From Schmidtea polychroa (Eukaryota), in the NCBI GenBank assembly GCA_044892525.1, contig CM097886.1, positions 139,376,001 through 139,440,000 on the forward strand: a DNA stretch of 64,000 bases. The letters run 5' to 3'. A program made the position numbers and the translations under genes. Below the pieces are notes generated by a model, which worked only from the letters and a program-made list of their open reading frames with translations, did no database searches and had not been told where the DNA came from. Shown in pieces: positions 7,837-43,181 of this stretch. Within the stretch, counting starts at the first letter, position 1; every line of letters starts with the position of its first letter.

Positions 7837-8536
7837 TGTGATGGAGGTTGTAGTTTTATCGTTATTATTGTTAATTATTGTTAATTTATGTTATTTTGGT
7901 GAAGATTTTGTAGAGCCCGAAAGAGTCACCGTTAAAACTTGTAGCGGGACAATCGGGGTGCGTGCTATGTTCAAAATATAATAATTACGAACAATATAAA
8001 GTTACGAATATAACGCAAAACAATAATAAAATGTTACAACTTTTAAACTTTATTATAACAAAGAAATAAAACCTCGTGTTTATCTTGGATTTTCGTAAAT
8101 TGTAGTTCCAAATATTTTCTTTGATTTTCTCTGCACTATAACCTATTTAGGAAATTTATATATCGAGAAATATGCTTCAAGTACAAATATAGTTCGATTA
8201 AAAACAACTGATTGATGAAACAGTATCTGCGTTTTCCGAAAACTTTTTTCTCCTTTCTTCACAATACTCACAATCTGTTTTGCAGTAAAATTCAAATAAG
8301 ATTTGTTAATTCTCAATATTTAATTTTCTATTTCCAACTCGACATTGATTTTTTATTTGATTTTTTTAATTTTTATTTTTGTAATTTACTATAGCGATAA
8401 TTTACTATAGTAAATTATCGCTATATAGTTTTTTATTAAAAATCTGGATTTCCCAGATGGTTGTATTTTATATTTTAGTATACACAATTCCTAATTGTGA
8501 ATACTAAAATATTAACAAAAATAACTGTACATTACA
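7837..8536 (-). repeat. 3' LTR of nested Gypsy element
   Basis: Matches 13267-13966; I found one difference (T8310 vs C13740). Confidence 0.97.
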
Positions 8537-8552
8537 TAACTTCCCCCTTTAA
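8537..8552 (-). promoter_or_regulatory. Polypurine tract
   Basis: Minus strand AAAGGGGGAAG-TTA immediately before the 3' LTR. Confidence 0.85.
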
Positions 8553-8711
8553 AACCGGAGGTTTACATGAATCAATAAAAAGTAACGTAAAAAAAATTAC
8601 ATTCAATAACCTTTTTTTTTTCGTATGTTTTATATGTTTTTGTGTATTTTGTTTCTGTTTCTTTGTATCTACAACTTCAATAAAATTAAAAATTTACATT
8701 TTGTTTTGTAT

Positions 8712-11700: not shown

Positions 11701-11891
11701 TTTATTGTGAGTGTTATTGTATATTGGCCAAATGTTTTAATTTTGGAGCCATTGGCAGCGGTTAGTGACTTTTCTGTAGTTTTTGCATTTGTGTATAAGT
11801 AGTGTGGTAATAGGGAGATCTGTATTGTTTGAATGCACCGTGAAAGTATTATTATTGTCACCAAATGTGGGTGCTATCAATGGTGACATTT
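8712..11891 (-). pseudogene. pol: pol (PR-RT-RNase H-IN) of nested element with five lesions
   Basis: Motifs: LTAANG...IIGADFL (PR); WRACGDYRLLN, RMPFGLRNA, YLDD (RT); TTDCSG, TDHKPL (RH); HPG...CHSC, HTDVIGP, TDQGRQF, IERFHR, EGPF (IN). Lesions: frame break at the PR active site, TGA at 11343, frameshifts near 11030 and 10845, TAA at 9468. Confidence 0.93.
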
Positions 11892-13067
11892 TTAGTTTTC
11901 CTGCTCTGTTTTGTGGAATTCGCAGGGTTTTATGCATTTATATGCTTTGTCGCCGAATTTGTTATGAAAGTAGCAGTGGTTTTTGTTTAGGAAATCTTTT
12001 CTTGAATTCCTTTCTGGGCTGCTATTTCGGTAATTGTTGTATCGATTTGGTGAGTTTGACCGGTTTCTGTAGTGACCGTTTGGGGATTGTCTGTGGCTGT
12101 AGTTCTGTCTATTGTTTTCGTTGGGTGGTCGGTCGTAGTTTTGTCTGTTATGATTGTATGATAGTTGGTCTGTGTTGAAATTGTTTCTGTTGAATAGGTC
12201 TCTGTTTTCGTTTGGATTGCAATTTTGCCTGTTGTATTTCTCTTTTATTTCGGCTAGTTCCGCTTTTATTTGTCTGTTTTCGACAATTATTTCGTCGAAT
12301 TTGCTGATCAAAGTGTTTATTAATCGGTTTGTTGTTTCATTTGGTTCTGTGTTTTTGTTGGTTGGTTGGGTGTTGTGATTAGTTTTATTTCTGTTGTAGT
12401 TTTGTGCGCTGCATATAGTAGGATAAATTTCTTCATTGATTTTATCTGCTATGTCTGCTAGCGTTTCTACGTCCGAATTGCTACTGGCTGCGAGGATACG
12501 TCTTATTTCGGGCGGCATTGCTCGCATGAAAAATTCTTTTACTAATTCGTTTGATCCCGAATTAGTGATGTTTGGTTGGAGGTACTTCAATTTTTGTTTT
12601 AGTTGGCGAAGGAAATCTGTTGGTTTATTGTCGCCAAGTTGTGTGTTGTTGAGACATGATTCCAGCATTTGCCTCCTGTTGATTTTGTTTTTGTTTGTTA
12701 GGACGTTGCAAAGCTTGTTGAACGGGTCTTCGCTCTTTGAAATTTCCTCAATTTGGTCAGCTATTTCGTTCAATTTGCTACTTGGGAGTGCAGCGATAAT
12801 GTTTGAACATAGCGTTTTCGTTGACTTTATTCCCGATAGGGTTAGGGTTAATTTAGCAAATTCAAGCCATTTTTGGGGTGTCCCATTTTCGTCACTAAAG
12901 TAGTTTGGGATGTTTGTTCTTGGGTTAATTACTGAGTTTATGGTGTGTGTATTATCTGTGCTAGTGTTTGGGTTATAGTAGTAATTCGTATTTTCCATCA
13001 TGTGTGTGTTTTCAGTATTATTGGGGGGTTGTGAAATGTTTGTTGGATTTGTTTGGTCTGATGCCAT
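11892..13067 (-). CDS. gag: Gag, 391 aa
   Basis: LGDNKPTDFLRQL, ELVKEFFMRAMPPEIRRIL, LADIADKI and C-terminal CYFHNKFGDKAYKCIKPC knuckle typical of CsRn1-type Gypsy Gag. Overlaps the pol frame at GAAAACTAA. Confidence 0.9.
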   Translation of the reverse strand: MASDQTNPTNISQPPNNTENTHMMENTNYYYNPNTSTDNTHTINSVINPRTNIPNYFSDENGTPQKWLEFAKLTLTLSGIKSTKTLCSNIIAALPSSKLNEIADQIEEISKSEDPFNKLCNVLTNKNKINRRQMLESCLNNTQLGDNKPTDFLRQLKQKLKYLQPNITNSGSNELVKEFFMRAMPPEIRRILAASSNSDVETLADIADKINEEIYPTICSAQNYNRNKTNHNTQPTNKNTEPNETTNRLINTLISKFDEIIVENRQIKAELAEIKEKYNRQNCNPNENRDLFNRNNFNTDQLSYNHNRQNYDRPPNENNRQNYSHRQSPNGHYRNRSNSPNRYNNYRNSSPERNSRKDFLNKNHCYFHNKFGDKAYKCIKPCEFHKTEQEN

Positions 13068-26574: not shown

Positions 26575-26611
26575 TCAGCTGTACATTTTAGACGGTTCTG
26601 ATACCGTTGTC

Positions 26612-27755
26612 AGTAGTAGGATGTGAGCTCCCCAGACCATGTCCCCTCCAGATCACATATACCCCCTCCCCCCCCCCCCGGGAAAAAATTTTATTTTTTT
26701 TTTAGAACGATGCCTAATATTTTTAGAACTATTACGTAATCAATGCCTAATATTTTTAGAACGATGCCTAATATTTTTAGAACTATTACGTAATTTTTTT
26801 TAAATTAAGTGATCCAGCGGGGACCTACTTTTTTTCTTCCCAAAAGTAATGTTCCCGCCAACAAATTTTATTAACCGATACCTCATCTTCAAGCTCAGTC
26901 CAAGACCTTTCGAATGAGCTATAGGTATCTTATATATCTTTAATAGTTTTAATGTTATTAACAATTGATGACCACCATCTTTTCAACGTTAAATTATTAT
27001 TATTTTTCAAAATATTATTAAGTGATCCAGCGGGGACCTACTTTTTTTCATCCCAAAAATTATTGTTCCCGCCAACATATTATATTGATCGATAGCTTAT
27101 TTTAAAGCTCTGTGCAAGAACTTTCTAATGAGATATAGATTTTTTATCATACGATGACTCATCACATTTTTAGAACAAAGACAATGACTCATCACATTTT
27201 TAGAATGATGTCTAATATTTTAGAATGATGCCAAATATTTTTAGAACGATGTCTATTATTTTTAGAATGATGTCTAATATTTTAGAATGATGCCTAATAT
27301 TTTTAGAACGATTACGTCATACTTTTAGAACGATGCCTAATATTTTTAGAACGATGCCTAATATTTTTAGAACTATTACGTAATCGATGTCTAATATTTT
27401 TAGAACGATGCCAAATATTTTTAGAACGATGCCAAATATTTTTAGAACGATGCCAAATATTTTTAGAGCGATTACGTAATACTTTTAGAACGATGCCTAA
27501 TATTTTTAGAACGATGCCTAATATTTTTAGAACGATGCCTAATATTTTTAGAACGATGCCAATTATTTTTAGAATGATTACATCATACTTTTAGAACGAT
27601 GTCTAATATTTTTAGAATTAATAATTTTGTTTTAATTATCGATGATTATATAATTTGTTTAAATCATTGATTATATAATTCTTTTGTTTTAATTATAGAA
27701 TACGTAATAATATAATTTTGTTTAAATCGTTGATTACATATTATTATTTTCTAAG

Positions 27756-27803
<48 letters not shown>

Positions 27804-27966
27804 CATATATATACAGAGTCTATCCGACAAAATATTCTGTCCCCCTAAGGGTACTGCACACAAATGTACTACTCACACTCAACAAGTCACAAGGGTACTG
27901 TTCACAAAATTACTTGTAAAAATATTCAAGACAAAACTTTCTAAATTCTAAATATTATTCTTTAAA
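26612..27966 (+). repeat. Maverick left TIR (~1355 bp)
   Basis: Reverse complement of 41381-42623. Contains a C-run, a ~210-bp internal duplication, ~21-bp TTTTAGAACGATGCCTAATAT tandem units and (ATT)n. Confidence 0.95.
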
Positions 27967-27972
27967 TATTCA

Positions 27973-28331
27973 CTAAAATTTATTAACACATTCACATTCA
28001 TCATCTCCACAGTTCATAACATTTTCAACAACATGATCTATACAATCCCTATATACACACGGTTCAGTATCCGTAAATTCCTCCATAGGTTCATCAATTT
28101 CTTGAATGCTTTCCTCATCATCTTGAGTGTTTTCTTCATCTGTTTCATCAAATTCCGAATCTTCACTCTCTGCTACCCAGCCGATATTTAATGCGTTTGT
28201 AACAGATAATATGTCCTCAATTTTCACACCAGATATTTCTGCTAACTTTTCCAATAAAAAGTTTATTATAAATTCTAAATATTAAATAATTCGATAATTA
28301 ACTAATCATATTAACCTTTTTCTGTAGTCAT
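27973..28331 (-). CDS. Small acidic Maverick protein, two exons (28331-28316, 28274-27973)
   Basis: ATGACTACAGAAAAAG|gt..41 bp..ag|AATTT gives MTTEKEFIINFLLEKLAEISG..., supplying an ATG that the ORF otherwise lacks. C-terminal DCIDH...CGDDECEC. Confidence 0.65.
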
Positions 28332-28427
28332 TATTAGTATTTTAAAACTATAGTATATATTTGTTTATAGAAAATATAGAATATAAGCGAAAACAAATAA
28401 GACTAAATACATTTATTAAATACAACA

Positions 28428-28847
28428 TTAAAATAACTGTGAAAGTCTAGCAGACATAATTTTCCAAATTGGAGAATACACATCATTATTATCAACTTTA
28501 TATCCTTGGATTGTAATTGTTATATACCAATTTTCGTTTTCTTTGAAACTGATTTCATCAAAGGAATCATAAAATTTTGCATATCGGTTGTTGAAAAATG
28601 CATTTTGATTGCATGATAGATTCGTATTCAACCTTTTGAAAACATCATCTATGGTTTTAATATCTAACATTGAAAGCGTGCCGGTTAAGAATTGAAATTG
28701 GGTAGGAATTAGCTTGATCGGTGACACCAATTTCATATTGATTTCTTCTTTTAAAAAATACATTTTGTAGTTGTGGAACATTTGAACAGGTTGTACAAGT
28801 TCTGGAACTACTTTTGGTTTTTCAGTGCTTGAAATTTTCTTGGTCAT
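28428..28847 (-). CDS. 139-aa Maverick accessory protein of unknown function
   Basis: Clean ATG-TAA ORF between two co-oriented genes. Confidence 0.7.
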   Translation of the reverse strand: MTKKISSTEKPKVVPELVQPVQMFHNYKMYFLKEEINMKLVSPIKLIPTQFQFLTGTLSMLDIKTIDDVFKRLNTNLSCNQNAFFNNRYAKFYDSFDEISFKENENWYITITIQGYKVDNNDVYSPIWKIMSARLSQLF

Positions 28848-28955
28848 TGTGAATTATGATTAAAATGAAATGGTACAGGGTTTTTATACCTATGACTATT
28901 GTTTATCATCCAATCAGATTGCAGTATGTTTTTGTTTTAATTGAATGATAAATAA

Positions 28956-29420
28956 TTAATTAAGTGATAATAAAAAATCTAAAAATTCTTTTCCTTCAAT
29001 TATTGATTTAATTTCAGATATGATATTATCAACTATACATTTGTAATCAATATTTTTTATTCCAAGAATTACTATCTTACCACTAGCGAATATATTTACA
29101 CACATAGGGTTATATTTTATATATCTCAAAGCTGGAAATAATTCTGGTTCATAAAAGCATGGTATTAATTTAGCTAATTTATTTAAATTACAAGAAAAAC
29201 CTATATCGGAAGTTACGGTTATCGATTGTATTTCTAAATCATAAACATTATATTCACTAGCTTTGATTATTTCCTTACACCCCATAATTCTACATTTACC
29301 AGTTTTGAAATATATTATTGGATATTTATTACTTCTATTGATAAGTTGTTGTGGTTTCCCTATTGGAAATACCATTTTTGATACATCAGTTTTTGCCCTG
29401 TAATTTATATTTGAAAGCAT
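28956..29420 (-). CDS. TATA-binding-protein-like protein, 154 aa
   Basis: IQSITVTSDIGFSCNLNKL...YEPELFPAL...NIFASGKIVILGIK matches TBP repeat 2 (IQN....DV.FPIRLE.L...YEPELFPGL...LIFVSGKVVLTGAK). IIYFKTGKCRIMGCK matches the end of repeat 1. Confidence 0.85.
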   Translation of the reverse strand: MLSNINYRAKTDVSKMVFPIGKPQQLINRSNKYPIIYFKTGKCRIMGCKEIIKASEYNVYDLEIQSITVTSDIGFSCNLNKLAKLIPCFYEPELFPALRYIKYNPMCVNIFASGKIVILGIKNIDYKCIVDNIISEIKSIIEGKEFLDFLLSLN

Positions 29421-29524
29421 TTTAATGAAATAATTTTAAAAACTTTGATATATATAGGTATTTAAAAACAGAGTTCATTTAAATTATCAATATAAACAAT
29501 AATTATATAGTTTAAATTTAAAAA

Positions 29525-30163
29525 ATGGAATTACGAAATGATGCAGTATACCAAATCGTTGGTCCAAGTGGTAGCGGGAAAACTTTATTTGTTTGTAAAT
29601 TACTAAAATCAAATTTGTTTAAAACAAAATTCAACAATATTTATTGGCATAGGGGCGCCGACGAAGAACACGGATTGACGCAATCAAGTTTCTGTCAGTT
29701 GAAAAACATGAAAATAGTAAAGGGCTTTGATAAAAACTGGTCAAGTCGTTTGAAGAAAGATGATGTCATCATTATCGATGATTTGTATCAAGAAGCCAAT
29801 AAAGAAAAGGACTTTAATAATTTATTCACAAAAATCAGCAGACATGTTGGTGTAACAGTTATTTTCATAACACAAAATCTATTTCATCAAGGTGGTGCAC
29901 ATCGAACACGTAATTTAAATGTACAATATTTAGTTATTTTCAAGAATCCTAGAGATGCAACTGTCATTGATTTTCTTGGACGACAAGCATACCCTAATAA
30001 CCGTAATTTTCTTATCAATGCATTTCAAGATGCTACGAAAATACCGCATGGGTATATATTTCTCGATTTCACACAACAATGCCCTGATGATATACGGGTA
30101 AAAACAGATATTTTCAACCCAAAAGGTGCCATGGTATATAAACAAAGTTCAAAACAAAGTTGA
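29525..30163 (+). CDS. Genome-packaging ATPase (A32/FtsK-like)
   Basis: Walker A GPSGSGKT, Walker B VIIIDD, FTKISRH, ITQNLF, RTRNLN, PHGYIFLD. Confidence 0.93.
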   Translation: MELRNDAVYQIVGPSGSGKTLFVCKLLKSNLFKTKFNNIYWHRGADEEHGLTQSSFCQLKNMKIVKGFDKNWSSRLKKDDVIIIDDLYQEANKEKDFNNLFTKISRHVGVTVIFITQNLFHQGGAHRTRNLNVQYLVIFKNPRDATVIDFLGRQAYPNNRNFLINAFQDATKIPHGYIFLDFTQQCPDDIRVKTDIFNPKGAMVYKQSSKQS

Positions 30164-30176
30164 AAACATATAAATC

Positions 30177-30671
30177 ATGTTTTCAAAAACAAGGATATCG
30201 GGTAAAAAACAACCAAAAGTTCCACCAACAACTAGTTATACTCCATCTAAAGAACTTATTACAGAAAATTTTCCTGCAATGAATCTTATTTCGAAAAATC
30301 CTAAACCTAAACCAAAAAGTAAAACCACTAAGAAAGTAAAAGTTGTTAAAAATCATCGGAGTTTCCCGTTTTTCAATACATTGTTAAAGGCACCAAGTAT
30401 GAAAAGAAACAGTATTTTGCAATCTTTTCCAAATTATGTTGTCGATGATTTACTCGATATTATACTTAAAGTAGTCAAAGGCAAGATTAAAATCAGTAAA
30501 TCTAAAAAGCAATTATTGAGTAAACATAGGAAACCTTTGCTATCATTAGTAAATAATAAAAATCGTCAACAAATGAGAAAAATTATATATAAACAACAAG
30601 GGGGATTTATCGGTGCATTGATACCTTTAGCAATATCATTATTAGGTGGAATAATAGGAAGTCGATCATAA
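30177..30671 (+). CDS. Basic virion/core protein with C-terminal QQGG-FIGALIP amphipathic tail
   Basis: Lys-rich; ends KQQGGFIGALIPLAISLLGGIIG, resembling the adenovirus pX GG-hydrophobic tail seen in Polinton accessory structural ORFs. Confidence 0.7.
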   Translation: MFSKTRISGKKQPKVPPTTSYTPSKELITENFPAMNLISKNPKPKPKSKTTKKVKVVKNHRSFPFFNTLLKAPSMKRNSILQSFPNYVVDDLLDIILKVVKGKIKISKSKKQLLSKHRKPLLSLVNNKNRQQMRKIIYKQQGGFIGALIPLAISLLGGIIGSRS

Positions 30672-30732
30672 ACAATGGGTGCTAATCCTTCATTACCAGA
30701 CATTAAATTTAATATTAAATCTTCTTGTTGTA

Positions 30733-31788
30733 ATGGAGAAGATTTGGACGAACCCAGAAGACGAAGCCGGTTTCGGTGGAGTGGCAAAATTAAGGAAAAG
30801 AGTTCCGAATTCGAAAAAGGAAACTCAGAAGTGGTTATCAGACCAGCTTGCGTACAGTTTGAACAAACCAATGCAGAAACGATTCCCAACAAGAGCATAT
30901 AAAACATATGGAATAAATGATTTATGGCAAATGGATTTGATGGAGATGATACCCTATTCTAAAATTAACAATGGGTATAAATATATTTTAACCTGTATTG
31001 ATGTATTCAGTCGGTTTGCCCGAGCAATACCCGTCAATGCAAAATCTGCAGATGAAATGTCCAAAGCTGTTAATCATTTATTTAAAGATGGACATCCTAA
31101 AAACTTGCAAACTGATTTAGGTATTAATATTATTATTTTTATTATTATTATTATTATTTTAGGTAAAGAATTCTACAACAGTAAAGTCAAGCAAATCCTC
31201 AATAAATTGAAAATAAACCATTACTCAGTACATTCTCAATACAAAGCTGCTCATGTTGAAAGATTTAACCGAACTTTGAGAGATAGATTAAAGAAATTAT
31301 TCGTGCATCAAGGTAATAAAAAATGGGTATTGGTTTTACCAAAAATAATAACCAGTTATAATCACTCATCACATCAAGGACTGAATGGATTAAGGCCGAT
31401 TGATATCACGTCAAAAACAATCTATTCTAAAAAACCTGAAAAAATTACAAAACTGAAATATAAAGTAGGTGACCATGTTAGAATTAGTAAAATTAGTGCA
31501 TCACCATTTATTAAAAATTTCGATACAAATTGGAGTGATGAAGTCTTTGTAATTTCAAAAATAAATACTAAACAGAATCCTGTAATGTATGTCATCAAAG
31601 ATAATGATAACAATATTGTACAAGGAAAATTTTATGAGCAGGAATTACAAGTTATTCCTCCCCCAAAAGTATTTAGAATTCAGAAGATTTTGAAAACTAA
31701 AAATAAAGGCAAGGATAAACAATACTATGTCAAATGGCATGGTTATCAAAACCCATCATGGATATCAGAAAAGGATCTAGTAAAGTGA
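30733..31788 (+). CDS. Retroviral-like integrase with C-terminal chromodomain and a predicted 42-bp intron (31121-31162)
   Basis: GFGGVAKL, WQMDL, LTCIDVFSR, LQTDLG|KEF, VERFNRTL, YYVKWHGY...SWI. Likely start is ATG 30733. Confidence 0.95.
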   Translation: MEKIWTNPEDEAGFGGVAKLRKRVPNSKKETQKWLSDQLAYSLNKPMQKRFPTRAYKTYGINDLWQMDLMEMIPYSKINNGYKYILTCIDVFSRFARAIPVNAKSADEMSKAVNHLFKDGHPKNLQTDLGINIIIFIIIIIILGKEFYNSKVKQILNKLKINHYSVHSQYKAAHVERFNRTLRDRLKKLFVHQGNKKWVLVLPKIITSYNHSSHQGLNGLRPIDITSKTIYSKKPEKITKLKYKVGDHVRISKISASPFIKNFDTNWSDEVFVISKINTKQNPVMYVIKDNDNNIVQGKFYEQELQVIPPPKVFRIQKILKTKNKGKDKQYYVKWHGYQNPSWISEKDLVK

Positions 31789-32801
31789 ATTTTTATACTA
31801 TTTTACCAAGCAATAGTTGCCCGCTTATTCATCCAGATAATCAAGCCAGTAAATTCATGGTCAATCTCCAGAATCCGATTTCTTTAAATGGTGACTGGGA
31901 AGTTGCACTGCAAGATTTTACATTCGTGTACAATACATTCCCATTTTATAGTCAATGTAAGATTGATTTCAAAAGGAATGCTATGAAAACATGTAGTGGT
32001 ATCTTTATTATCAGTAATTATGATAAAACATATCATATTCCGAATCAAATATTAGATCAGCATTGCACTATGTTTTACAAGGATGGATTAAATATCAGTT
32101 GTGATTTTAAACCATTTACAATAACATTCGAATATATTGAAGATGCCAGACGAATGGGTTGCAATAAGTTGAAAAATGAAGTTATGGAAACAGAATATTT
32201 ATTACGCTTTGATCTATTTGAAGCAAACAGTGTAATGAGAGAAGAAATCAAAATTTCAGTGTCGTATAATAATGAAGTTGAAGAATCATTCACCTTCGCT
32301 GACGAATTATATATTGATAAACTTGATGTGTTACTTAAATATTTAAAGTATAATTGTTCACACATATTTAAAAGTTTGGATATTGTGAAAGATTTGTTAT
32401 TTACCTTCAGTTTGAATGATGACATTTGCGAAGTTACATTTGATAAAAATTTGACAAATACACTTGGATTAGAGAAGCAGCAATATCGGGAAAAATCGGC
32501 TGGTATACGTAAACCAAGAATACTTGAACATCATCAACAAATGTTCATATATACTAATATTATTGAGCCTATAATAGTTGGTGATTCCAGTGTTCCTCTA
32601 TTGAAATCGGTGTGGATTGGAAAATATGAACATGATGAAGTTGTCAATATAAATATAGATAATCCCATGTATTTACCAATTTCAAGCTCATGTATAAACA
32701 ATATAGAAATAAATATTCGTGACGATAGTGGAAAACTTATAAACTTCCCAAAAGACTCAAAAACTCATTTGACACTACATTTTCGTAAAGTAGATGGCTA
32801 A
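31734..32801 (+). CDS. Minor capsid protein (penton)
   Basis: FYTILPSNS...FMVNLQNPISLNGDWEVAL and FIYTNIIEP.IVGD..VPLL...YLPI...IEINIRDDSGK...LTLHFRK. Exact start uncertain. Confidence 0.88.
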   Translation: MAWLSKPIMDIRKGSSKVNFYTILPSNSCPLIHPDNQASKFMVNLQNPISLNGDWEVALQDFTFVYNTFPFYSQCKIDFKRNAMKTCSGIFIISNYDKTYHIPNQILDQHCTMFYKDGLNISCDFKPFTITFEYIEDARRMGCNKLKNEVMETEYLLRFDLFEANSVMREEIKISVSYNNEVEESFTFADELYIDKLDVLLKYLKYNCSHIFKSLDIVKDLLFTFSLNDDICEVTFDKNLTNTLGLEKQQYREKSAGIRKPRILEHHQQMFIYTNIIEPIIVGDSSVPLLKSVWIGKYEHDEVVNINIDNPMYLPISSSCINNIEINIRDDSGKLINFPKDSKTHLTLHFRKVDG

Positions 32802-33156
32802 TTCCGATATTATTAGTATGTATAGTGATAGCCAATCTGGTGGTGAATTACCATATTTTATTGGTAAACAGTATGGATCAGGTTGGTTAAAAACAATAGG
32901 GAGATTTGCACTTCCCATTCTTAAACGTATTGGTAGTTTTGGCATGAAAACTGCAAAAGATGTGATTATGAATGAACAGAAAATATTACCATCCCTAAAA
33001 ACAAATGCTTTAGCTGAGTTAGGGAAGGTTCTACCTGGAGTTGCTGGTATGTTTCAAAAAGATACACCTCCAGTCCCAGCGCCAAAACGTAAAGGGCATG
33101 GAATATCGCGTATAAACAAACGAATGAAAGGACATGGAACTATATTTGCAAAATGA
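32794..33156 (+). CDS. Small Gly-rich amphipathic structural protein (PZ-type)
   Basis: QSGGELPYFIGKQYGSGWLKTIGRFALPILKRIG; overlaps both neighbours. Confidence 0.75.
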   Translation: MANSDIISMYSDSQSGGELPYFIGKQYGSGWLKTIGRFALPILKRIGSFGMKTAKDVIMNEQKILPSLKTNALAELGKVLPGVAGMFQKDTPPVPAPKRKGHGISRINKRMKGHGTIFAK

Positions 33157-34376
33157 TTTGTGGTAAATCCGAATTATGTATATTTGATAGACCGTCGCCC
33201 CAGGCAGTAATAGAATTTGGTGCCTTTGAGGAAGTTTTTCCTATGAATTCAATTACTGATAGTAGAAATGATATCGAGTTTTATATTAATGGTTCGGAAA
33301 CTGAATATTTAGATTTGAACGATACTTTATTGACTGTTCAGATCAAGGTTGTAGATAAAGATAGAAAGGTTTTGGATGCCAATGCGGATGTATTACCAAA
33401 CAATTTCATGTTTCATACTCTGTTTAAAGATGCAGTGTTGGGATTTAATAATATCAAGATTGAGGGTGGAAATAATACATTCATTCACAAGGCTTTGATA
33501 GAAACTATTTTAAATTACAATTCAGATACTAAAAATACCTGTCTTACACCTATGGGTTATGCAGCAGCAGATGATGAAAGAAAAAAGTGGGTTAAAGGTT
33601 CAAAAGTATTCACTATGTGCTCATCATTACAACTTGATTTTATGGATCAACCGAAATATTTACTACCGGGAGTTAATATACATATTAGACTGAAAAGATC
33701 TGATTCTGCATTGTCTCTTACTAGTGCAACTGGTGCACCAATATGTCAATTAGTTGATGCAAAATTATTGGTGAGAAGAGTTCGAGTAGACCCGTCAGTA
33801 TTAGCTGGTCATCAATTGGGGCTTAATTCAAAACATGCAATTTATCCTTTAAAAACAAAGGAAATTGTACAATTTGCTATTGCTAAAGGTGCTTCATCAT
33901 TCTATAAAGAACAAATATTTGGTGACAGAAGAATGCCTAATTTTATTCTGGTAACATTTCAAAGTGAAACGCAATATAATGGATCGTATACTGCTTCCAG
34001 CTCAATTTTCAAAAACTTTGGTGTTACTTCATTGACTTTGTCGAAAAATACTGATTATGGAGAAACATATATTCAAGATTTCGAGAATGATAATTACTGT
34101 GCGACATATATGCAGAGTATTGTTAGAAATCTGGGTTATTTAGATAAAAACTTGAATTGCGGAATAACTCTTGAAGAATTTAAAAGCAAATACCCATTTT
34201 TCACATTTGTTCTAGCTACCGATTTTGATTTAAATCAGAGTCAATTACCACAAAACGGGAATTTACGACTGGATATAAAGTTTGCAAAGGCCATTACTGA
34301 ACCAGTACATGTTATAATATATGGAGTATTTGAAAATGAAGTTCAAATTACTGCAAATAGAACCGTGCTAGTATAA
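33153..34376 (+). CDS. Major capsid protein (double jelly roll, hexon-like), 407 aa
   Basis: CGKSELCIF, IEFYINGSETEYLDLNDTLL, LQLDFMDQPKYLLPGV.I.I.L.R, QNGNLRLDIKFAK. Confidence 0.92.
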   Translation: MICGKSELCIFDRPSPQAVIEFGAFEEVFPMNSITDSRNDIEFYINGSETEYLDLNDTLLTVQIKVVDKDRKVLDANADVLPNNFMFHTLFKDAVLGFNNIKIEGGNNTFIHKALIETILNYNSDTKNTCLTPMGYAAADDERKKWVKGSKVFTMCSSLQLDFMDQPKYLLPGVNIHIRLKRSDSALSLTSATGAPICQLVDAKLLVRRVRVDPSVLAGHQLGLNSKHAIYPLKTKEIVQFAIAKGASSFYKEQIFGDRRMPNFILVTFQSETQYNGSYTASSSIFKNFGVTSLTLSKNTDYGETYIQDFENDNYCATYMQSIVRNLGYLDKNLNCGITLEEFKSKYPFFTFVLATDFDLNQSQLPQNGNLRLDIKFAKAITEPVHVIIYGVFENEVQITANRTVLV

Positions 34377-34788
34377 ATGTATACAGAAACACCAAAAAGT
34401 TGTCATGGAGTAAGTTTTTCAATACTGTTTAATTTATTAAAGTAGTTCTGTTCAGGTCAATAGAATTGGAAAACAGATATTGGGAAATGAATTTGTAGGA
34501 GTTTTTCCTCTCGATAAAATCCCATATTTGAGCAATAATCAAGCCATAATCGTCAATACTCAATCGTCTCATCTTGGTGGAGAACATTGGATTGCTATAT
34601 ATGTGAAACCTAGTAATATATTCGTGTTCGATCCTATGGGTTTCTATTACCCTGCTTTGTTGGTATCAAAACTACAAACAATGGGGAAACCTATTGTATA
34701 TAATAAAACAATGTTTCAAAATCCCTTGACACAAACATGCGGTCAACATTGTTTAGCTTGGTTGTTGTATAAAAAATTTGATGATTAA
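34377..34788 (+). CDS. Adenain-like cysteine protease, two exons (34377-34409, 34456-34788)
   Basis: FVGVFP.D, GEHW, FDP.G, Q...CGQHC catalytic set. A GTAAGT...TTCAG 46-bp intron links an in-frame ATG placed directly after the MCP stop. Confidence 0.9.
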
Positions 34789-35404
34789 TAAANNNNNNNN
34801 NNNNNNNNNNNNNNNNNNNNNNNNNNNNNNNNNNNNNNNNNNNNNNNNNNNNNNNNNNNNNNNNNNNNNNNNNNNNNNNNNNNNNNNNNNNNNNNNNNNN
34901 NNNNNNNNNNNNNNNNNNNNNNNNNNNNNNNNNNNNNNNNNNNNNNNNNNNNNNNNNNNNNNNNNNNNNNNNNNNNNNNNNNNNNNNNNNNNNNNNNNNN
35001 NNNNNNNNNNNNNNNNNNNNNNNNNNNNNNNNNNNNNNNNNNNNNNNNNNNNNNNNNNNNNNNNNNNNNNNNNNNNNNNNNNNNNNNNNNNNNNNNNNNN
35101 NNNNNNNNNNNNNNNNNNNNNNNNNNNNNNNNNNNNNNNNNNNNNNNNNNNNNNNNNNNNNNNNNNNNNNNNNNNNNNNNNNNNNNNNNNNNNNATATTA
35201 TTATCTAACTATACAAACATTGTGCATGCACAAAGATATGCAATCCCATTTGCTACCATTTGATTGGCTGATAGAGGAAAAAGTATTCAGGAATGTGTCT
35301 TAATTCTGATTGGTTGAGACATGGAAATATTCCTGTTCTATATAAACATTGACAATTCTAAAATTCGTCATAATTATTCTTAAATTTACAAATTTTAAAT
35401 TAGA

Positions 35405-35970
35405 ATGGACGCTGATTTACACAAAATTTTGAATGCCATGTTGATGGGTGAAAATGGTAAATTATTTAGTTATTATTATTATTATTTTTATTTATTATTT
35501 TAGAGAATTTATGGTACCAAGTGACTGAAGATGATTCAATTTTGAATGTTGATAGGATTTTCGGTAAATTTAAATATTTTAATTTTTATGAAATTATTAT
35601 TTTATTTAGAACCTATTATAATTAGCGACGATGATGATGTCGTGTTTATTGGGCAAAATGATGCCCCGGATAATGATGCCTTATTTGTTAGGCAAAACAA
35701 TGTTTTTAATGAACAAAGTAAATTTATTTTATTTTAGTATATTATTTTTTAAAAATCATTTTAGTGTTTAATGTTGACATGGACGCTTAAATCGATGTTC
35801 CAATTAATAATGATTCTATTGAGGAGATGAATAATGCACTGACTTCTATCGATGAGTTGAATTATGTGGATAATACAATCGAGGAGCTTGTTAATGTGGA
35901 TAATGCCCTCACTTCTATTGAGGAGGTTGTTGATAATGAATCAGATTCCGACATGGAATCACGATGTTAG
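35405..35970 (+). pseudogene. Four-exon acidic protein gene inside the Maverick, with an in-frame TAA in exon 4
   Basis: Exons 35405-35456, 35504-35563, 35610-35717, 35765-35970; introns 47/46/47 bp GT-AG, all phase 1. TAA at 35788; the frame then stays open for 59 further codons to TAG 35970. Confidence 0.65.
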
Positions 35971-36333
35971 TATTTATTTATTTTTATATATTTATTTTTT
36001 TTTTTTTTAAAAACCTTGTAAATTTCTTAAATACTTTTTAAACATTTTCTTTAAAAACTTATTTATAAAAACTTATTATGAAAATGAAGAAAATATTATG
36101 ATGAAATTGAAAATGTTATGTTGACTAAATGATGAAAATATTATGATGAAGAAAATGATGAAAATATTATGATGAAGAAAATGATGAAAATATTATGATG
36201 AAGAAAATGTTTAAAAAGTATTTAAGAAACAATAGTTTTAAAATATTCCTTGTAGTTTGCAATGAGCAACTACATTAGTTAAAATAATAATAATAATAAT
36301 AATAATATTAAAAATAGTAATAAAAATATATCT

Positions 36334-36780
36334 TGTAGTCTGCAGTGAGCATGCAGCTACATATCTCTTTTATCATGATTGCCCCAATAAATGTAGTCTG
36401 CAGTCAGCATGCAGCTACATATCTCTTTTATCATGATTGCCCCAATAAATGTAGTCTGCAGTCAGCATGCAGCTACATATCTCTTTTATCATGATTGCCC
36501 CAATAAATGTAGTCTGCAGTCAGCATGCAGCTACATATCTCTTTTATCATGATTGCCCCAATAAATGTAGTCTGTAGTCAGCATGCAGCTACATCAAACT
36601 AATTATTTATTACGTAATACATACCCTTTATTAAATGTGTCTAAATGCAGCTGCGTCAAACTAAATATTTATTACGTAATACATACCCTTTATTAAATGT
36701 GTCTAAATGCAGCTGCAACAAACTATTTATTACGTAATAATTAACCCTTATTAAATATAGTCTGCATGCAGCTGCATCAA
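36334..36780. repeat. Tandem arrays upstream of pPolB: 5 x 58-bp hairpin units, then 3 x ~62-bp units
   Basis: TGTAGTCTG units at 36334, 36392, 36450, 36508, 36566; second array carries TATTACGTAATA. Confidence 0.92.
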
Positions 36781-36964
36781 TAATGATAATAATGATAATA
36801 ATAATAATAATAATAATAAAATCACACATTTATAGTTTACAAGACTTTATTAATATAAATACAATTTCATGATTAATATTAATTGATAAATATAATTAAC
36901 AGGCAAATTATATCCACATTACTGCCAGGCTTCAACTGGTCACTCAAATTTATGTCACAAAGTG

Positions 36965-39900
36965 ATGAAAAAATATTATGGTCGTAAATTTTATGGCATC
37001 AAGTACTATATATGCCCAATATGCGAGACTTCCCATAGCATTAAATATTTAGAGTTTTACAGTATACATAAATCCCATTTAAATCAGTTCTCTTTAAATA
37101 AAAAGGATTTATTTAACAAATTGCGAAATACCGCAAAACCTATAATTAAAACTAATGTAAATAATACAAAACCTGTAAATAATAATACAAAACCTGTAAA
37201 TAATAATACAAAACCTGTAAATAATATTACAAAACCTGTAAATAATATTACAAAACCTGTAAATAATAATACAAAACCTGTAAATAATAATACAAAACCT
37301 GTAAATAATAATACAAAACCTGTAAATAATATTACAAAACCTGTAAATAATATTACAAAACCTGTAAATAATAATACAAAACATGTAAATAATATTACAA
37401 AACCTGTAAATAATAATAATACAAAACCTGTAAATAATATTACAAAACCTGTAAATAATAATATAAAACATGTAAATAATATTACAAAACCTCTAATTAA
37501 TAATGTTATTAATGTAAATAATAATTTAAAAAGACCTGCTGTTAGTATTGGGTCTGATGCTCCCTCTAAAATTAATAAATTAGAACAAATAACTGTGGTT
37601 AATAATATTCAAGTAGGCGGTTCAGTCGATATTGACGATGAACCTGAAATCGAAATTGATTTTAAGGGGGTTCGAAAGAATCTAAGATTTAATGTAGAAA
37701 AGGATAACATCATTCAAATATCCATAACCGATAAAATCGTTAATAAGTTAAAACATGAAATAATCAGAATGGGGTCGGTGAAAATACAATTCTCTGTATT
37801 GATTCAATTTGAAAAAGATGGTGAAATTAAAGATAATTTCTTCTCGAATAGGGCAGAGGCTTTTTCAGATAGTTTTCTAAGTGAGGGGGTTCACAAATTA
37901 AATAATAAAATAGAAAAATTCACATATTTGGGTAGTGGATGGCGGGTTGTTAAAATCAAAGAAATAGATTTTATATTAACAAAATTTACACATATGAATA
38001 GGCTAGCTGGACATAGTTACATCCCCACCCCATCATCTTTAAAATCTAAAAATGCAATAGTAAATGTTAAAAACACCGATGATATGTGCTTTATATATAG
38101 TATTTTAGCACTTTTAAAACGCAATGTCGTACATAGTCATAGGAACCGTGTTAGTTCCTATGAAAATTATCTTGACGAGTTAAATTTTGACCCCATTTCC
38201 GACTGTCCAATGAAACTATGTGATATTCCTAAATTCGAGATGAAAAATAAGGATTTAAATTTATCAATAAATGTTTTAACTTATAGAACAACCCCTGCTA
38301 AGCCTTTTGAAAATATAGTTGACGATAATTATATTCCACATCATCCCAAATTGGATATAATTCACCGATCTACGGTTATAGGTGGTGAACCCATATATTT
38401 ACTTTTATTGGAAGACGGTGATAATTTCCATTATACTGCAGTTTTTAACTTACAAAGACTAATGAATTGTCGCTCTAGTAGTGAATGTGACGTTAGACTT
38501 CAAGTAAACTGGTGCCCCCATTGTCTCAATGGTTTTCGACTTAAAAATGCATTTGATATTCACGTTGCCTTATGCATTAAAAACCAGATAGGTACTACTT
38601 TATACACGCTACCCAATGATAAAAATTTAATTTTTCAAAATTATGCGAAAACCATAACCCCGCCATTCGTGATATATGCAGACTTTGAATCAATTTTACC
38701 GGGGGATATAATACACCATCAAAAGCATTTGCCAATAACAGCAGGTTTATTATTAATAAATAATTATAATAACTCTAAATTTTATTATGAGTTTGTTGGG
38801 GATGATTGTATCTTATCTTTCTTGCGTAAGGTGGAGGAAATTGCTATGACAATTGTCCTGCCATATTACGAAATTAATGGGAAAAAGCCCATGCAGACCT
38901 TGTCTTTCGCTGAAGAGCGGGCCTTTCGTGATTCCAGAACCTGCTACCTTTGTAAAAAATTCATTAAGAATAGAGTTAGGGATCATTGTCACTTTTCAGG
39001 TAAGTATCTTGGTGCTGCCTGTATGAAATGTAATGTTTCTCGACGAATTCAGAAACAGTTACCTGTGGTTTTTCACAATTTGAGGGGGTATGATCTTCAT
39101 CATATTTTGAAGTATGGTTTGAATAATTTTCCTTCTTGGGAATTAAATATTATTCCGACCACTACTGAGAAATTCATCTCTCTTATCGCGTACATTAACA
39201 AATTGTCTGTTCGTTTTATTGACAGCATGCAGTTTGTTAATTCATCTTTAGCAAAAGCGGTTAAGACTCTTTCCGATCTGCCTTTAACTTCTTCTGTTTT
39301 CGATGGCGCAATTGTTCGAGCCAAAGGTATCTTTCCTTATGACTTTGCAACTTCGCTTGAGGTTCTGGAATCGACTCTTGAATTGCCTCCTATTTGGGAT
39401 TCTGTGTCTAATGATGAATATGCATTAGCCCAAGTAATTTGGACTCAGCAAAACTGCAATAACATGTTAGATTACATGTTAACTTACCTTAAATTAGACG
39501 TGTTTCTCCTCGCAGACTATTTCCAACAATTCCGTGCAAAGGCCATTGCTTACAATGGTCTTGAGCCTCTTAATTTCTATGGCATTCCCGGTATGTCATG
39601 GGCCTCTGCGCTTATGACATTAACGGAACCCATTGAACTTTTGCAGGACATGGAAATGTTTAATTTCTATGAAGGAGGGATACGTGGTGGGTTAACATTT
39701 GTTAACAAACATTATGTTGCAAGTTCTGAAGACACAGAACTCTTGTATATTGATATTAATAACTTGTATGGTTGGGCCTTAAGCCAAAATCTGCCTTATG
39801 CTGACTTTGTTTGGGTGTATGATGATCTTGATTCTGTCTTGAATGAATGTATAAATGCTGATATCGATAACCTTCCATATGGTTATACTATGGAGGTAGA

Positions 39901-41143
39901 TATGGATATACCTGTTTGTTTGCATGACTTTCTGAATGATTTTCCTCTTGCTCCGGAAAAGATGTGCCCGCCAAATTCTAAAGTTGAGAAGCTGATGCTC
40001 ACGCATTGGCCGAAGAAGAACCATGTTCTTCATTGGCGACTTCTCAAGTTGTATATAGAATTGGGGGCTATTATTAAAAATGTACATAGAGCAATCAAAT
40101 TTAAGCATGCACCCATTTTCAAATCTTACATAGACAAAAACACTAATTTGAGAGCCAATTCTACATGCGAATTATATAGGGATCTATACAAATTATTTAA
40201 TAATAGTCTGTATGGGAAATCCGTAGAAAACCTTAAAAAACGGATGAATTTGAGGCTATGCAATTCAGCTGAAAAGATGATTGTATATGCTTCAAAGCCG
40301 ACTTTCAAGAAATCTATCAAAATTGATGATGACTTGATTGCTGCACATCTATATAAGGATTCTATATGTTTAGACAGGCCTAGTTACATTGGCCAAACGG
40401 TGCTAGACCTGTCTAAACTGAGGATGTACCAGTTACAGTATAAAGAATTGGCTAAATATAGAAATGAATTTAAATGTGAGATAAATATCGTTGCCGGCGA
40501 TACTGACTCCTTTTTTCTTGAGGTTAAGAACTGTAAGCTTGACACTCTTTTGCCGGCAATGATTCGTGACAATCTTTTAGACACTTCCAACTATGACCCT
40601 GCACATCCCTTATACTCTAGAAACCTTGATTCGGTGATAGGTAAATTTAAAGATGAAAGTAAAGGTCTAGGGTATAAGGAATGGGTTTTCTTAAGACCCA
40701 AGTGCTATAGTTTGTTAGGGGCTAAAGATCATTTAAAAGCAAAAGGAGTCAGGTTAATAGGTACAGAAATTAGGCACGATTCATATTTAGAATGCTACAA
40801 TAACAACGTAGTATTTTCTGTGCCACAAAGTAGGATAGGGACGCGGAACCATCAATTGTACACATTTAAAAACAATAAAATCGCGTTGACAAACAACGAC
40901 GACAAGCGGTTTTGGGTGGGGAAAAATTCCAGTCTCGCATTTGGTCATTATTTAGCACTAGATGATATAAATGATGATCAAATATTTGAAGAAGTTGGGC
41001 CACTATTCGGAGGATTAAGTCCAGATTTTGTTTCTGGTGATGAGGAAGTGGGTCCACTTTTCAATGGTTTAAGTCCAGATTTCGATTCTGGTGATGATCC
41101 TAATGATAAAAGAGATATAGATGATATTTTATTGTCAGACTAA
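36965..41143 (+). CDS. polB: Protein-primed family B DNA polymerase (~1392 aa)
   Basis: YADFES, DHCH.SG, FHNL.GYD, FIDSMQF, KGIFPY, Y..LDV, YIDINNLYG, KLFNNSLYGK, GDTDS, RPKCYS. N-terminal Zn-finger-like motif and ~16 PVNN(N/I)TK repeats. Confidence 0.97.
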   Translation: MKKYYGRKFYGIKYYICPICETSHSIKYLEFYSIHKSHLNQFSLNKKDLFNKLRNTAKPIIKTNVNNTKPVNNNTKPVNNNTKPVNNITKPVNNITKPVNNNTKPVNNNTKPVNNNTKPVNNITKPVNNITKPVNNNTKHVNNITKPVNNNNTKPVNNITKPVNNNIKHVNNITKPLINNVINVNNNLKRPAVSIGSDAPSKINKLEQITVVNNIQVGGSVDIDDEPEIEIDFKGVRKNLRFNVEKDNIIQISITDKIVNKLKHEIIRMGSVKIQFSVLIQFEKDGEIKDNFFSNRAEAFSDSFLSEGVHKLNNKIEKFTYLGSGWRVVKIKEIDFILTKFTHMNRLAGHSYIPTPSSLKSKNAIVNVKNTDDMCFIYSILALLKRNVVHSHRNRVSSYENYLDELNFDPISDCPMKLCDIPKFEMKNKDLNLSINVLTYRTTPAKPFENIVDDNYIPHHPKLDIIHRSTVIGGEPIYLLLLEDGDNFHYTAVFNLQRLMNCRSSSECDVRLQVNWCPHCLNGFRLKNAFDIHVALCIKNQIGTTLYTLPNDKNLIFQNYAKTITPPFVIYADFESILPGDIIHHQKHLPITAGLLLINNYNNSKFYYEFVGDDCILSFLRKVEEIAMTIVLPYYEINGKKPMQTLSFAEERAFRDSRTCYLCKKFIKNRVRDHCHFSGKYLGAACMKCNVSRRIQKQLPVVFHNLRGYDLHHILKYGLNNFPSWELNIIPTTTEKFISLIAYINKLSVRFIDSMQFVNSSLAKAVKTLSDLPLTSSVFDGAIVRAKGIFPYDFATSLEVLESTLELPPIWDSVSNDEYALAQVIWTQQNCNNMLDYMLTYLKLDVFLLADYFQQFRAKAIAYNGLEPLNFYGIPGMSWASALMTLTEPIELLQDMEMFNFYEGGIRGGLTFVNKHYVASSEDTELLYIDINNLYGWALSQNLPYADFVWVYDDLDSVLNECINADIDNLPYGYTMEVDMDIPVCLHDFLNDFPLAPEKMCPPNSKVEKLMLTHWPKKNHVLHWRLLKLYIELGAIIKNVHRAIKFKHAPIFKSYIDKNTNLRANSTCELYRDLYKLFNNSLYGKSVENLKKRMNLRLCNSAEKMIVYASKPTFKKSIKIDDDLIAAHLYKDSICLDRPSYIGQTVLDLSKLRMYQLQYKELAKYRNEFKCEINIVAGDTDSFFLEVKNCKLDTLLPAMIRDNLLDTSNYDPAHPLYSRNLDSVIGKFKDESKGLGYKEWVFLRPKCYSLLGAKDHLKAKGVRLIGTEIRHDSYLECYNNNVVFSVPQSRIGTRNHQLYTFKNNKIALTNNDDKRFWVGKNSSLAFGHYLALDDINDDQIFEEVGPLFGGLSPDFVSGDEEVGPLFNGLSPDFDSGDDPNDKRDIDDILLSD

Positions 41144-41380
41144 ACTGTGATAAATGTTAATATATCTTTAATAAAACGTTTCTTCTACATTGTTGTATTA
41201 TCTAAAATTTTTATTGAAAACTTGTTATAGTTTTCACATTTCTTACAAATGTTAAACACTTGTATAAATATATTTATTAATATTGATAAAGTTTTTATAA
41301 ATCATGTTTAACTATTGAAAGAAATTTTTATTTGAAATGTATGTATGAGCTCACCACTACATATATGAGTTGAGTGTACA

Positions 41381-41528
41381 TTTAAAGTATAATATTTAGA
41401 ATTTAGAAAGTTTTACCTTGAATATTTTTACCAGTACCAATTGTGAACAATAACCATGTGACTTGTTGAGTGTGAGTAGTACCCTTGCTAGCAATACCCA
41501 TAGGGAGACAGAATATCTTGTCGGATAG

Positions 41529-41591
<63 letters not shown>

Positions 41592-42623
41592 CTTAGAAAA
41601 TAATAATATGTAATCAACGATTTAAACAAAATTATATTATTACGTATTCTATAATTAAAACAGAAGAATTATATAATCAATGATTTAAACAAATTATATA
41701 ATCATCGATAATTAAAACAAAATTATTAATTCTAAAAATATTAGGCATCGTTCTAAAAGTATGATGTAATCATTCTAAAAATATTAGGCATCGTTCTAAA
41801 AGTATGACGTAATCGCTCTAAAAATATTAGGCATCGTTCTAAAAATATTTGGCATCGTTCTAAAAATATTAGACATCGATTACGTAATAGTTCTAAAAAT
41901 ATTAGGCATCATTCTAAAAATAATAGACATCGTTCTAAAATTATGACGTAATCATTCTAAAAATATTAGGCATCATTCTAAAATATTAGACATCATTCTA
42001 AAAATAATAGACATCGTTCTAAAAATATTTGGCATCATTCTAAAATATTAGACATCATTCTAAAAATGTGATGAGTCATTGTCTTTGTTCTAAAAATGTG
42101 ATGAGTCATCGTATGATAAAAATCTATAGCTCATTCGAAAGTTCTTGGACTGAGCTTTAAAATAAGCTATCGATCAATATAATATGTTGGTGGGAACAAT
42201 AATTTTTGGGATGAAAAAAAGTAGGTCCCCGCTGGATCACTTAATAATATTTTGAAAAATAATAATAATTTAACGTTGAAAAGATGGTGGTCATCAATTG
42301 TTAATAACATTAAAACTATTAAAGTTATATAAGATACCTATAGCTCATTCGAAAGGTCTTGGACTGAGCTTGAAGATGAGGTATCGGTTAATAAAATTTG
42401 TTGGCGGGAACATTACTTTTGGGAAGAAAAAAAGTAGGTCCCCGCTGGATCACTTAATTTAAAAAAAATTACGTAATAGTTCTAAAAATATTAGGCATCG
42501 TTCTAAAAATATTAGGCATCGTTCTAAAAAAAAAAATAAAATTTTTTCCCGGGGGGGGGGGGGGGGGAGGGGGTATATGTGATCTGGAGGGGACATGGTC
42601 TGGGGAGCTCACATCCTACTACT
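41381..42623 (-). repeat. Maverick right TIR (~1243 bp)
   Basis: Inverted copy of the left TIR with fewer 21-bp units and scattered substitutions. Confidence 0.95.
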
Positions 42624-43181
42624 GTTGTCATCTCAGTTGACTGATCTGTTTTGACAATTTACTTTATTTCATTGGTCTACAATTTACTTTGTTTAACTAG
42701 TTTGTAATTTATTTTGTTTAATTTATTTATAATTTAGTCTACAATTTACTTTGTTTATTTTATTTATAATTTCGTACAATCTGTCTATGTTTCTAAATTT
42801 TGATATGCCTGTATTTGACTGAATTTGGGGATTAACGGCGCTCTGGTGCAATACTTCTTGCATTGTTTTAAATTATTATTAGTTGGATGTTTTTTTTAGT
42901 TTTCTGTGTTATTTTCTCTATTATTACTGTTTATTTGGTGTTCTATTATGTTTTAATTTAAATATACCTAATGCTGGGTATGTTGTTGTGTGCCACCACA
43001 TTCTGTCACAATCTCAAGATGTGGGTCTAGAATTCAGTTCTAGTCCAACAATAATAACGTACTAAAAGAGAAAGTCAAGCCCCAAATATGAATTGTTATA
43101 ATTTATTAATTTTTGAGGTATATTATTTTTAAATTTTTTAATGTTATTAAATTTATTTATGTTTCTATGTAATCATCTCTA

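Follow-up and report, generated by a model that had tools for sequence, protein, structure and literature searches.

The Maverick (Polinton) element lying in the analysed stretch of Schmidtea polychroa DNA (64,000 nucleotides, the window) encodes a reduced TATA-binding protein (TBP), and the packaging, integrase and putative capsid genes of Mavericks with this type of TBP are mostly preceded by a strand-fixed promoter-like box, YATAAACR, which is not found before their TBP genes. We propose, with a probability of roughly 0.65, that the reduced TBP binds YATAAACR and recruits host TFIIB and RNA polymerase II (Pol II) to these genes, which would then be expressed as a late wave.

A Maverick with a reduced TBP

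The element shows the hallmarks of Mavericks: terminal inverted repeats (TIRs) of about 1.2-1.3 kb, AGT termini, a 6-bp target-site duplication (GTTGTC, 26606-26611 and 42624-42629), an integrase (Pfam rve), a packaging ATPase (Pfam Pox_A32) and a protein-primed DNA polymerase (pPolB). The latter was called from motifs in its translation, which we take to be those of B-family polymerases, and gave no Pfam polymerase match. The AGT termini match the end motif of Mavericks described in parts of PMC8097293. For the double jelly-roll major and single jelly-roll minor capsid proteins of Mavericks, the candidates here were assigned from gene position and conservation. Table 1 lists the features; the gene list is incomplete, as one ORF-sized stretch reads N. 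The frame that we assume to encode a protease has no full ATG-opened reading frame in this copy and is either spliced or broken. ORF139, a frequent neighbour of the TBP gene, lies downstream of a canonical TATA box and a CCAAT box. Comparison of its model with the ssDNA-binding proteins T7 gp2.5, Enc34 and ASFV CP312R gave middling Z scores of 6.5-7.3, and the fold also resembles many NCLDV proteins.

Two further regions of the element may contain spliced genes. An acidic, Cys-rich frame at 27973-28281(-), with no ATG and no Pfam match, is probably the last exon of one. At 35250-35600(+), an ATG and GT...AG introns follow two CCAAT-type boxes and TATATAAACA; the latter (35341) is at once a canonical TATA box and a YATAAACR-type box. 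From this arrangement the region likely holds another spliced gene. Outside the Maverick, positions 5805-13067 contain frames of a Gypsy-type retrotransposon (integrase, RNase H and gag-like DUF7041).

Table 1. Features of the Maverick element in the window, and TBP genes of contrast Mavericks (L numbers denote other loci).
Feature	Position	Strand	Basis or remark
Maverick/Polinton element, 16,012 bp	26612..42623		ends AGTAGT...ACTACT
Left TIR	26612..27907	+	inverted-repeat arms
ORF139, predicted T7 gp2.5/Enc34-type ssDNA-binding fold	28428..28847	-	model pLDDT 89
Reduced TBP, 154 aa	28956..29420	-	Pfam, model, superposition
Canonical-type TATATATA box, 36 nt before TBP start	29449..29456	-	sequence; family TATAWAW enrichment
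TATAAACA box, 34 nt before ATPase start	29491..29498	+	26/27 relatives
A32-like packaging ATPase, head-to-head with TBP gene	29525..30163	+	Pfam Pox_A32 2e-07
TATAAACA box inside ATPase 3' end, 40 nt before ORF164	30137..30144	+	motif scan
ORF164, basic, putative virion core protein	30177..30671	+	kept in relatives; role inferred from position
TATAAACA box, 87 nt before 75-aa ORF	30588..30595	+	motif scan
CATAAACA box, 66 nt before integrase start	30667..30674	+	motif scan
75-aa ORF	30675-30902	+	ORF list
Retroviral-type integrase, chromo-like C-terminus	30733..31788	+	Pfam rve 6.6e-08
GATAAACA variant inside integrase end, for putative minor capsid gene	31714	+	upstream reading
Putative minor capsid protein	31734..32801	+	position and conservation; no Pfam match
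TATAAACA box, 101 nt before ORF120	32693..32700	+	8/8 relatives, 7 at 98-107 nt
ORF120, putative virion protein	32794..33156	+	ORF list; relatives
TATAAACA box inside ORF120, 42 nt before putative major capsid gene	33111..33118	+	11/11 relatives
Putative major capsid protein, 407 aa	33153..34376	+	position and conservation
Protease-like frame	34441..34788	+	49% to L176 ORF in protease position
pPolB, 1392 aa	36965..41143	+	pol B motifs; tblastn to relatives
Right TIR	41441..42623	-	inverted-repeat arms
Full two-lobe Maverick TBP, 183-189 aa	L178:11565-12122	-
Full two-lobe Maverick TBP, 183-189 aa	L206:2229	+
Full two-lobe Maverick TBP, 183-189 aa	L208:13041	-
Conventional-type Maverick TBP cut by contig end	L207 right end

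A preliminary description of this locus had recognised a TBP-like protein with a shortened first repeat and no N-terminal extension. The three motifs that it named (YFKTGKCRIMG, YEPELFPAL and IFASGKIVILG) are all found in the translation of the 154-aa ORF, which has indeed no N-terminal extension. The TBP assignment was borne out at each level: the ORF matches Pfam PF00352 in one stretch (residues 62-125, E 2.8e-15, 56.4 bits with a cut-off of 22.9), 35 of its 36 PDB sequence matches are TBP-containing chains, and AlphaFold2, run on a 70-row alignment, predicts its structure with a pLDDT of 96.1 and a pTM of 0.85. Both lobes of the model superpose on TBP (Z 12.6, rmsd 2.5 Å over 141 residues; Foldseek E 2.5e-9) and form the two-lobe beta-saddle. 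The first repeat is shorter, as described, and the model refines this point: the four N-lobe strands are kept, the N-lobe helices H1 and H2 are missing (no helix of at least 4 residues before residue 79), and the C-lobe is complete. The median length of the N-lobe is 67 residues in reduced TBPs versus 91 in 29 conventional TBPs, which makes it 24 residues shorter. The basic patch that helix H2 offers to regulators is absent from the reduced TBP, judging from the model and the lobe length.

We compared functionally important residues over 70 homologues of reduced type. Counts over loci, here and below, are not independent, as a number of the metagenome loci (many of them) stem from shared datasets and this genome contributes six of the rows. 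Residues were mapped through the structural register of the superposition and by hand alignment, largely with the yeast numbering of PMC12529657 (Table 1). The equivalents of yeast F116, F190 and F207 are invariant (70/70), as is the TFIIB-binding Glu pair E186/E188 (E91/E93 here). Three of the four DNA-intercalating Phe are thus kept, the fourth being replaced in all homologues (F99->P, 70/70, at a position that was aligned by hand within a remodelled loop). V71->N, V122->R, V203->C and L205->N are also found in 70/70 homologues each, N159->S and I194->R in 69/70 and V161->T in 67/70; the Asn pair N69/N159 is accordingly not kept whole, although N69 itself is retained in 67/70. At the altered positions, the 29 conventional TBPs carry F in 26, V in 26, V or I in 25, L in 24 and N in 29 cases. 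Compared with cellular TBP/TRF (PF00352), the reduced TBP therefore shares the two-lobe saddle, three intercalating Phe, N69, P191 and the TFIIB-binding Glu pair, and differs by its N-lobe, by F99->P and by its DNA face, where six positions have become fixed for other residues, most of them polar. On sequence grounds, the missing Phe could mean that DNA binding is reduced.

In Ravarani et al. (parts of PMC7221094), TFIIB is the partner ascribed to the C-lobe Glu pair, and the basic patch of N-lobe helix 2 is ascribed to regulators, BTAF1/Mot1 and Brf1 among them; viral TBPs are reported there to have usually lost both. The reduced TBP has likewise lost the helix 2 patch but, unlike the usual viral TBPs, keeps the Glu pair. 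Contigs of one run, guessed to be RNA, span the TBP ORF, and those of a second run of the same guessed type lack its 5' two-thirds.

Distribution of the YATAAACR box

ATAAAC was the top hexamer in de-duplicated windows upstream of ATPase, ORF164 and major capsid genes, where it occurred in 44 of 50 windows (mean 3.3 and maximum 12 in 2000 shuffles). In 20 of 26 cases the ATPase ATG follows it at 31-37 nt, and none of 27 ATPase windows has it in reverse; it is a one-strand box. The context over 65 sites defines it as Y-ATAAAC-R (T43/C19/G2/A1 before, A54/G8/T3 after). We found YATAAACR within -150..-15 of 77 of the 87 genes for ATPase (26/27), ORF164 (9/12), integrase (12/14), minor capsid protein (7/10), ORF120 (8/8), major capsid protein (11/11) and protease (4/5) in Mavericks with a reduced TBP; it is missing from the other 10, and its distance to the ATG varies from 17 to 129 nt. 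By contrast with these 77/87, it precedes none of 51 TBP genes, which agrees, as a correlation, with the herpesvirus-like pattern of a non-canonical cognate box before structural genes and absent from early ones. The TBP genes have TATAWAW upstream in 27/51 cases (shuffle mean 5.9, max 14). YATAAACR precedes 3 of 18 ORF139 (SSB-like) genes, and ATAAAC is found within -75..-15 of 1 of 8 pPolB genes, whose starts are uncertain.

Where the box lies inside upstream coding DNA it persists in two frames, mostly as ATA-AAC; AAC is the minority Asn codon (338/1256) and the box still uses it. YATAAACR is not enriched in the window as a whole (17 occurrences, 22.0±4.5 expected), and the signal is therefore positional and not compositional.

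The ATPase start places the two divergent genes 104 bp apart, exactly as first described, and the spacer contains a core-promoter candidate for each of them, back to back: TATATATA before the TBP gene and TATAAACA before the ATPase gene. From its sequence, the TATATATA box is likely the promoter through which host TBP acts on the viral TBP gene. A CATAAACA box at 29240-29247(+), which overlaps the TBP gene in antisense orientation, has no assigned target and might drive an antisense RNA or be due to chance. We rejected a reading of the box as poly(A) signal: A precedes ATAAAC in only 1 of 65 sites, and the gene upstream of the ATPase box is divergent. An enrichment of CCAAT before TBP genes (13/51 versus 5.5 shuffled, max 15) was also unconvincing.

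Mavericks with a conventional-type TBP provided a contrast. Their contigs came from an ATPase scan of prokaryote assemblies, in which Mavericks are binned as apparent contaminants; those with a full TBP sit in bacterial MAGs, and one such TBP is deposited as a Limnohabitans hypothetical protein. The translations of the L178 and L206 proteins keep the conventional saddle residues. YATAAACR precedes 0 of 19 genes on the four contigs with a conventional-type TBP and 0 of 10 genes on five partial sister contigs on which no TBP is visible (0.9 expected by shuffle in the contrast group). The ATPases of this group are 30-39% identical to that of the window, against 36-41% for the box-bearing loci L077-L095 and L103; as these distances are similar, distance alone does not account for the loss of the box. 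The contrast is essentially one of one clade against two or three, so that shared descent could suffice to explain it, and no Maverick among those compared was shown to lack any TBP. TATAARR occurs before 14 of 29 genes of the control Mavericks versus 6.9 expected (2 of 1000 shuffles), a motif picked after looking, while TATAWAW is not enriched there (11 versus 8.9 shuffled).

Linkage, selection and descent of the TBP gene

The TBP gene is linked to Mavericks, as the preliminary description implied. In the genome itself, all 150 scored matches to the gene (from 4136 first-look candidates) are 100% identical and open; the 30 TBP loci fetched all have Maverick neighbours, and the 30 loci found through the ATPase all carry the TBP gene next door. 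At least three TBP families coexist in this genome, with 58-63% identity to the window protein. Outside it, 97 of 118 candidates are homologues, none of them with an NCBI or UniRef source; among the metagenome relatives, of which the best 80 of 92 were kept, 74 are of reduced type. Maverick core genes were present on 19 of 22 contigs of at least 4 kb, on 15 of 24 with a length of 2-4 kb and on 2 of the 28 that are shorter. Locus L176, found through its ATPase alone, also carries a TBP gene, and so do the three other near-complete Mavericks found without a TBP query (L178, L206 and L208). TBP may therefore be common among Polintons. The full-length Maverick TBP, used in turn as a query for homologues, returned only itself at E<=1e-15.

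The gene family is under purifying selection, as estimated from its sequences: the median Nei-Gojobori dN/dS was 0.31 over 353 pairs of 87 genes (pS 0.05-0.65), with about 0.1-0.3 in intact pairs. The top values near 1 involve one frameshifted copy, and AT-rich saturation makes dS rough. In a quick IQ-TREE analysis of 94 rows, 56 reduced TBPs, including two first labelled conventional by their length, lie on one side of a long branch with 99% SH-aLRT support, whereas the host's own TBP falls on a short branch among eukaryotic TBPs. The reduced TBPs thus form a clade separate from host TBP, which argues for an old element-borne lineage and not a fresh capture. A reading of the gene as a recently captured, decaying host TBP fragment without a role could point to its short length and two lost helices, but the low dN/dS of intact pairs, this long branch, the confident compact fold and the 150 identical open copies make it extremely improbable.

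TBP forms of about 165 aa with an H1-like segment in their sequence fall outside the 150-aa core group (supports 83-93%), which suggests a stepwise reduction of the N-lobe. In one family of this genome (family C, L125-L133, compared with 28428-30671), dS reaches 1.17-1.23 at the TBP gene but 0.38-0.54 at ORF139, ATPase and ORF164; from these values, an exchange of the TBP gene between lineages of Mavericks is likely. Foldseek matches of the reduced TBP in BFVD have 8-22% identity, an Atlas search gave generic TBP clusters only, and scans of IMG/VR gave one conventional viral TBP, one marginal match and no relatives of the ATPase or major capsid protein. A scan of a phage collection yielded no match, and a distant capsid protein searched against this genome gave only 25-27% matches and no closer lineage.

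A proposed late-gene TBP, its alternatives and known systems

It had been suggested that the protein could redirect host Pol II to the AT-rich promoters of the element or act as a dominant-negative TBP mimic. The first suggestion gained support from the position- and strand-fixed YATAAACR box, which tracks with the remodelled TBP, with the amendment that the target is one defined box and not AT-rich promoters in general; the second gained no positive support. In the model that we favour, host TBP would first transcribe the viral TBP gene through its ordinary TATA box. The reduced TBP would then bind YATAAACR, its remodelled saddle (V71N, V122R, N159S, V161T, L205N, F99P) shifting the specificity away from TATAWAW, and would dock host TFIIB through E91/E93, so that host Pol II is launched on the morphogenesis and integrase genes as a second wave. 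With helix H2 lost, Mot1/BTAF1 and other factors that act on the N-lobe would no longer find their basic patch, and the protein might thereby escape host control and serve few host promoters. We infer the binding, recruitment and timing steps alike; the term late is assumed from the class of the genes, and the integrase gene shares the box.

The N-lobe Phe pair of TBP takes the 3' end of the TATA box. The box departs from the norm at this 3' end (C at position 7), as does the protein in its N-lobe (F99P, V122R, V71N). According to parts of PMC10005294, each of the two Phe pairs of TBP makes one kink in the box, at bp 1-2 and at bp 7-8, and host TBP is weak on a TATAAACG box, with 27% of the activity of TATAAATA in a plant assay. 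TATAAAC is by this measure still a weak host TATA box; PDB titles also record wild-type TBP in complex with a C(-25) variant.

This residual activity is what an unlikely but foremost alternative would exploit. In this reading, YATAAACR would serve host TBP or one of its divergent paralogues as a weak TATA box; the viral TBP would be a decoy or repressor, sequestering TFIIB or dampening the transcription of host or early genes. In its favour, the host genome contains five or more TBP-family loci and clustered TFIIB-like genes, and a protein that keeps the TFIIB Glu pair and lacks one Phe would suit a decoy. However, its DNA face is fixed at new polar residues (70/70) and not degenerate, for which a pure decoy has no need, and the box is absent where the TBP of the element is conventional. 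Moreover, 19 of 65 sites start with C (CATAAAC), which is poor for host TBP, C at position 1 lowering TATA-box activity in the table of PMC10005294.

Somewhat less probable still is that the viral TBP binds the box within a larger viral or Pol III/BRF-type complex and not through host TFIIB. Herpesvirus and NCLDV TBPs use viral partners (parts of PMC12529657 and PMC7221094), and the element has small, possibly spliced ORFs with no assigned role besides the ORF-sized stretch that reads N. Yet both TFIIB-contact Glu are invariant, unlike in other viral TBPs, the N-lobe helix also used by BRF1 is missing, and no TFIIB-like or RNA polymerase Pfam match was found in 12 element frames (10 + 2), a scan in which that stretch reads N and small exons were partly covered.

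The box could also be a site for a host forkhead (FOX) factor, with another or a general role for the viral TBP. The forkhead consensus is RYAAAYA, which ATAAACA fits, and A follows the hexamer in 54 of 65 sites. We consider this very unlikely. GTAAAC, which would suit a forkhead factor equally well, is present in 1 of 27 ATPase windows, and none of the 27 has the box inverted. In 8 of 65 sites the final A gives way to G, and the distance from the box to the ATPase gene resembles that of a core promoter.

Among known systems, the late-gene model resembles the vTBP of beta- and gamma-herpesviruses (KSHV ORF24, EBV BcRF1), a virus-encoded TBP fold that acts with a non-canonical TATA-like box before structural genes, for late expression that depends on DNA replication. 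According to parts of PMC12529657, ORF24 reads TATTWAA and has polar residues at the V122, V161 and L205 equivalents; these are polar in the reduced TBP as well. The same source describes the ORF24 TBP fold as one part of a much larger polypeptide that works in a complex of six members, with four Phe, no TFIIB Glu and a TFIIB-independent, direct binding to Pol II through an extra domain. In contrast, the reduced TBP is a stand-alone protein of 154 aa that keeps the TFIIB Glu, has no Pol II-binding domain and goes with a different box, and no sequence relationship between the two was shown. By analogy, we regard the Maverick system as comparable to herpesvirus vTBP/TATT without being a member of it, and as likely using host TFIIB. 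NCLDV and mirusvirus TBPs also represent a TBP gene in a dsDNA virus lineage that lost the N-lobe regulatory signature; following parts of PMC7221094, the TFIIB signature is mostly gone from these TBPs, and a TFIIB of viral origin often accompanies them.

The element shares with Mavericks/Polintons (adintoviruses) the TIRs, (AGT)2//(ACT)2 ends, 6-bp duplication, pPolB, integrase, ATPase, putative capsid genes and protease. The vertebrate Maverick gene list in parts of PMC8097293 contains no TBP. A TBP-like gene is labelled, without analysis, on one MELD-virus map of Starrett et al. 2021 (Fig. 5, PMC8502044), also a Polinton-related element; compared by legend only, this entry has no description of family, residues or promoter. 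The proposal that the system was undescribed thus stands for the protein family and its box, on which we found no paper outside subscription journals and Repbase, and yields to this legend as regards the label. TBP and TATA were absent by term search from the text available of PMC11161782, PMC10748475, PMC8097293, 10.1101/2025.02.07.637071 and 10.64898/2026.06.19.733378, and the supplement files of PMC7221094 that were searched have no Polinton entry.

These observations matter for how Mavericks express their genes and for whether they are self-sufficient viruses. A dedicated TBP with its promoter box is a concrete candidate for an early-to-late switch and a marker for locating Maverick promoters. 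The chances are about even that they form a private two-stage programme, in which the minimal, regulator-proof TBP of one clade, with an orthogonal YATAAACR specificity, hijacks host TFIIB and Pol II, sister lineages keeping a full TBP and ordinary TATA boxes. If true, TBP would be widespread among Polintons and would have been overlooked, its saddle and promoter would have co-evolved, convergently with herpesvirus vTBP, and there would be direct evidence that Mavericks govern the expression of their virion genes themselves, with no helper virus. The reduced TBP is also a natural dissection of TBP, with the TFIIB contact kept, the regulatory helix discarded and DNA-face residues newly fixed; it could show which changes rewire TATA specificity, and could find use as an orthogonal basal factor.

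Several observations concern the host and other Mavericks. The host has a conventional TBP and at least four divergent TBP-family loci (L112-L117). Thirteen TFIIB-matching frames of 301-310 aa lie at 38.2-39.1 Mb of contig C3 and 23.8-24.2 Mb of contig C1 of this genome (G000); the two that were fetched (L142, L143) are intronless, divergent and outside Mavericks, with a Zn ribbon and a cyclin fold. The best host match to PF00382 is presumably BRF1-like and not TFIIB, judging from a sequence motif. Other Mavericks carry an ORF resembling what we take to be a ubiquitin-conjugating enzyme (L037:719(-)) and two ORFs with a motif that we assume to be that of parvovirus-like phospholipase A2 (L079:7276(+) and L082:5246(+)), both of which lie behind ATAAAC.
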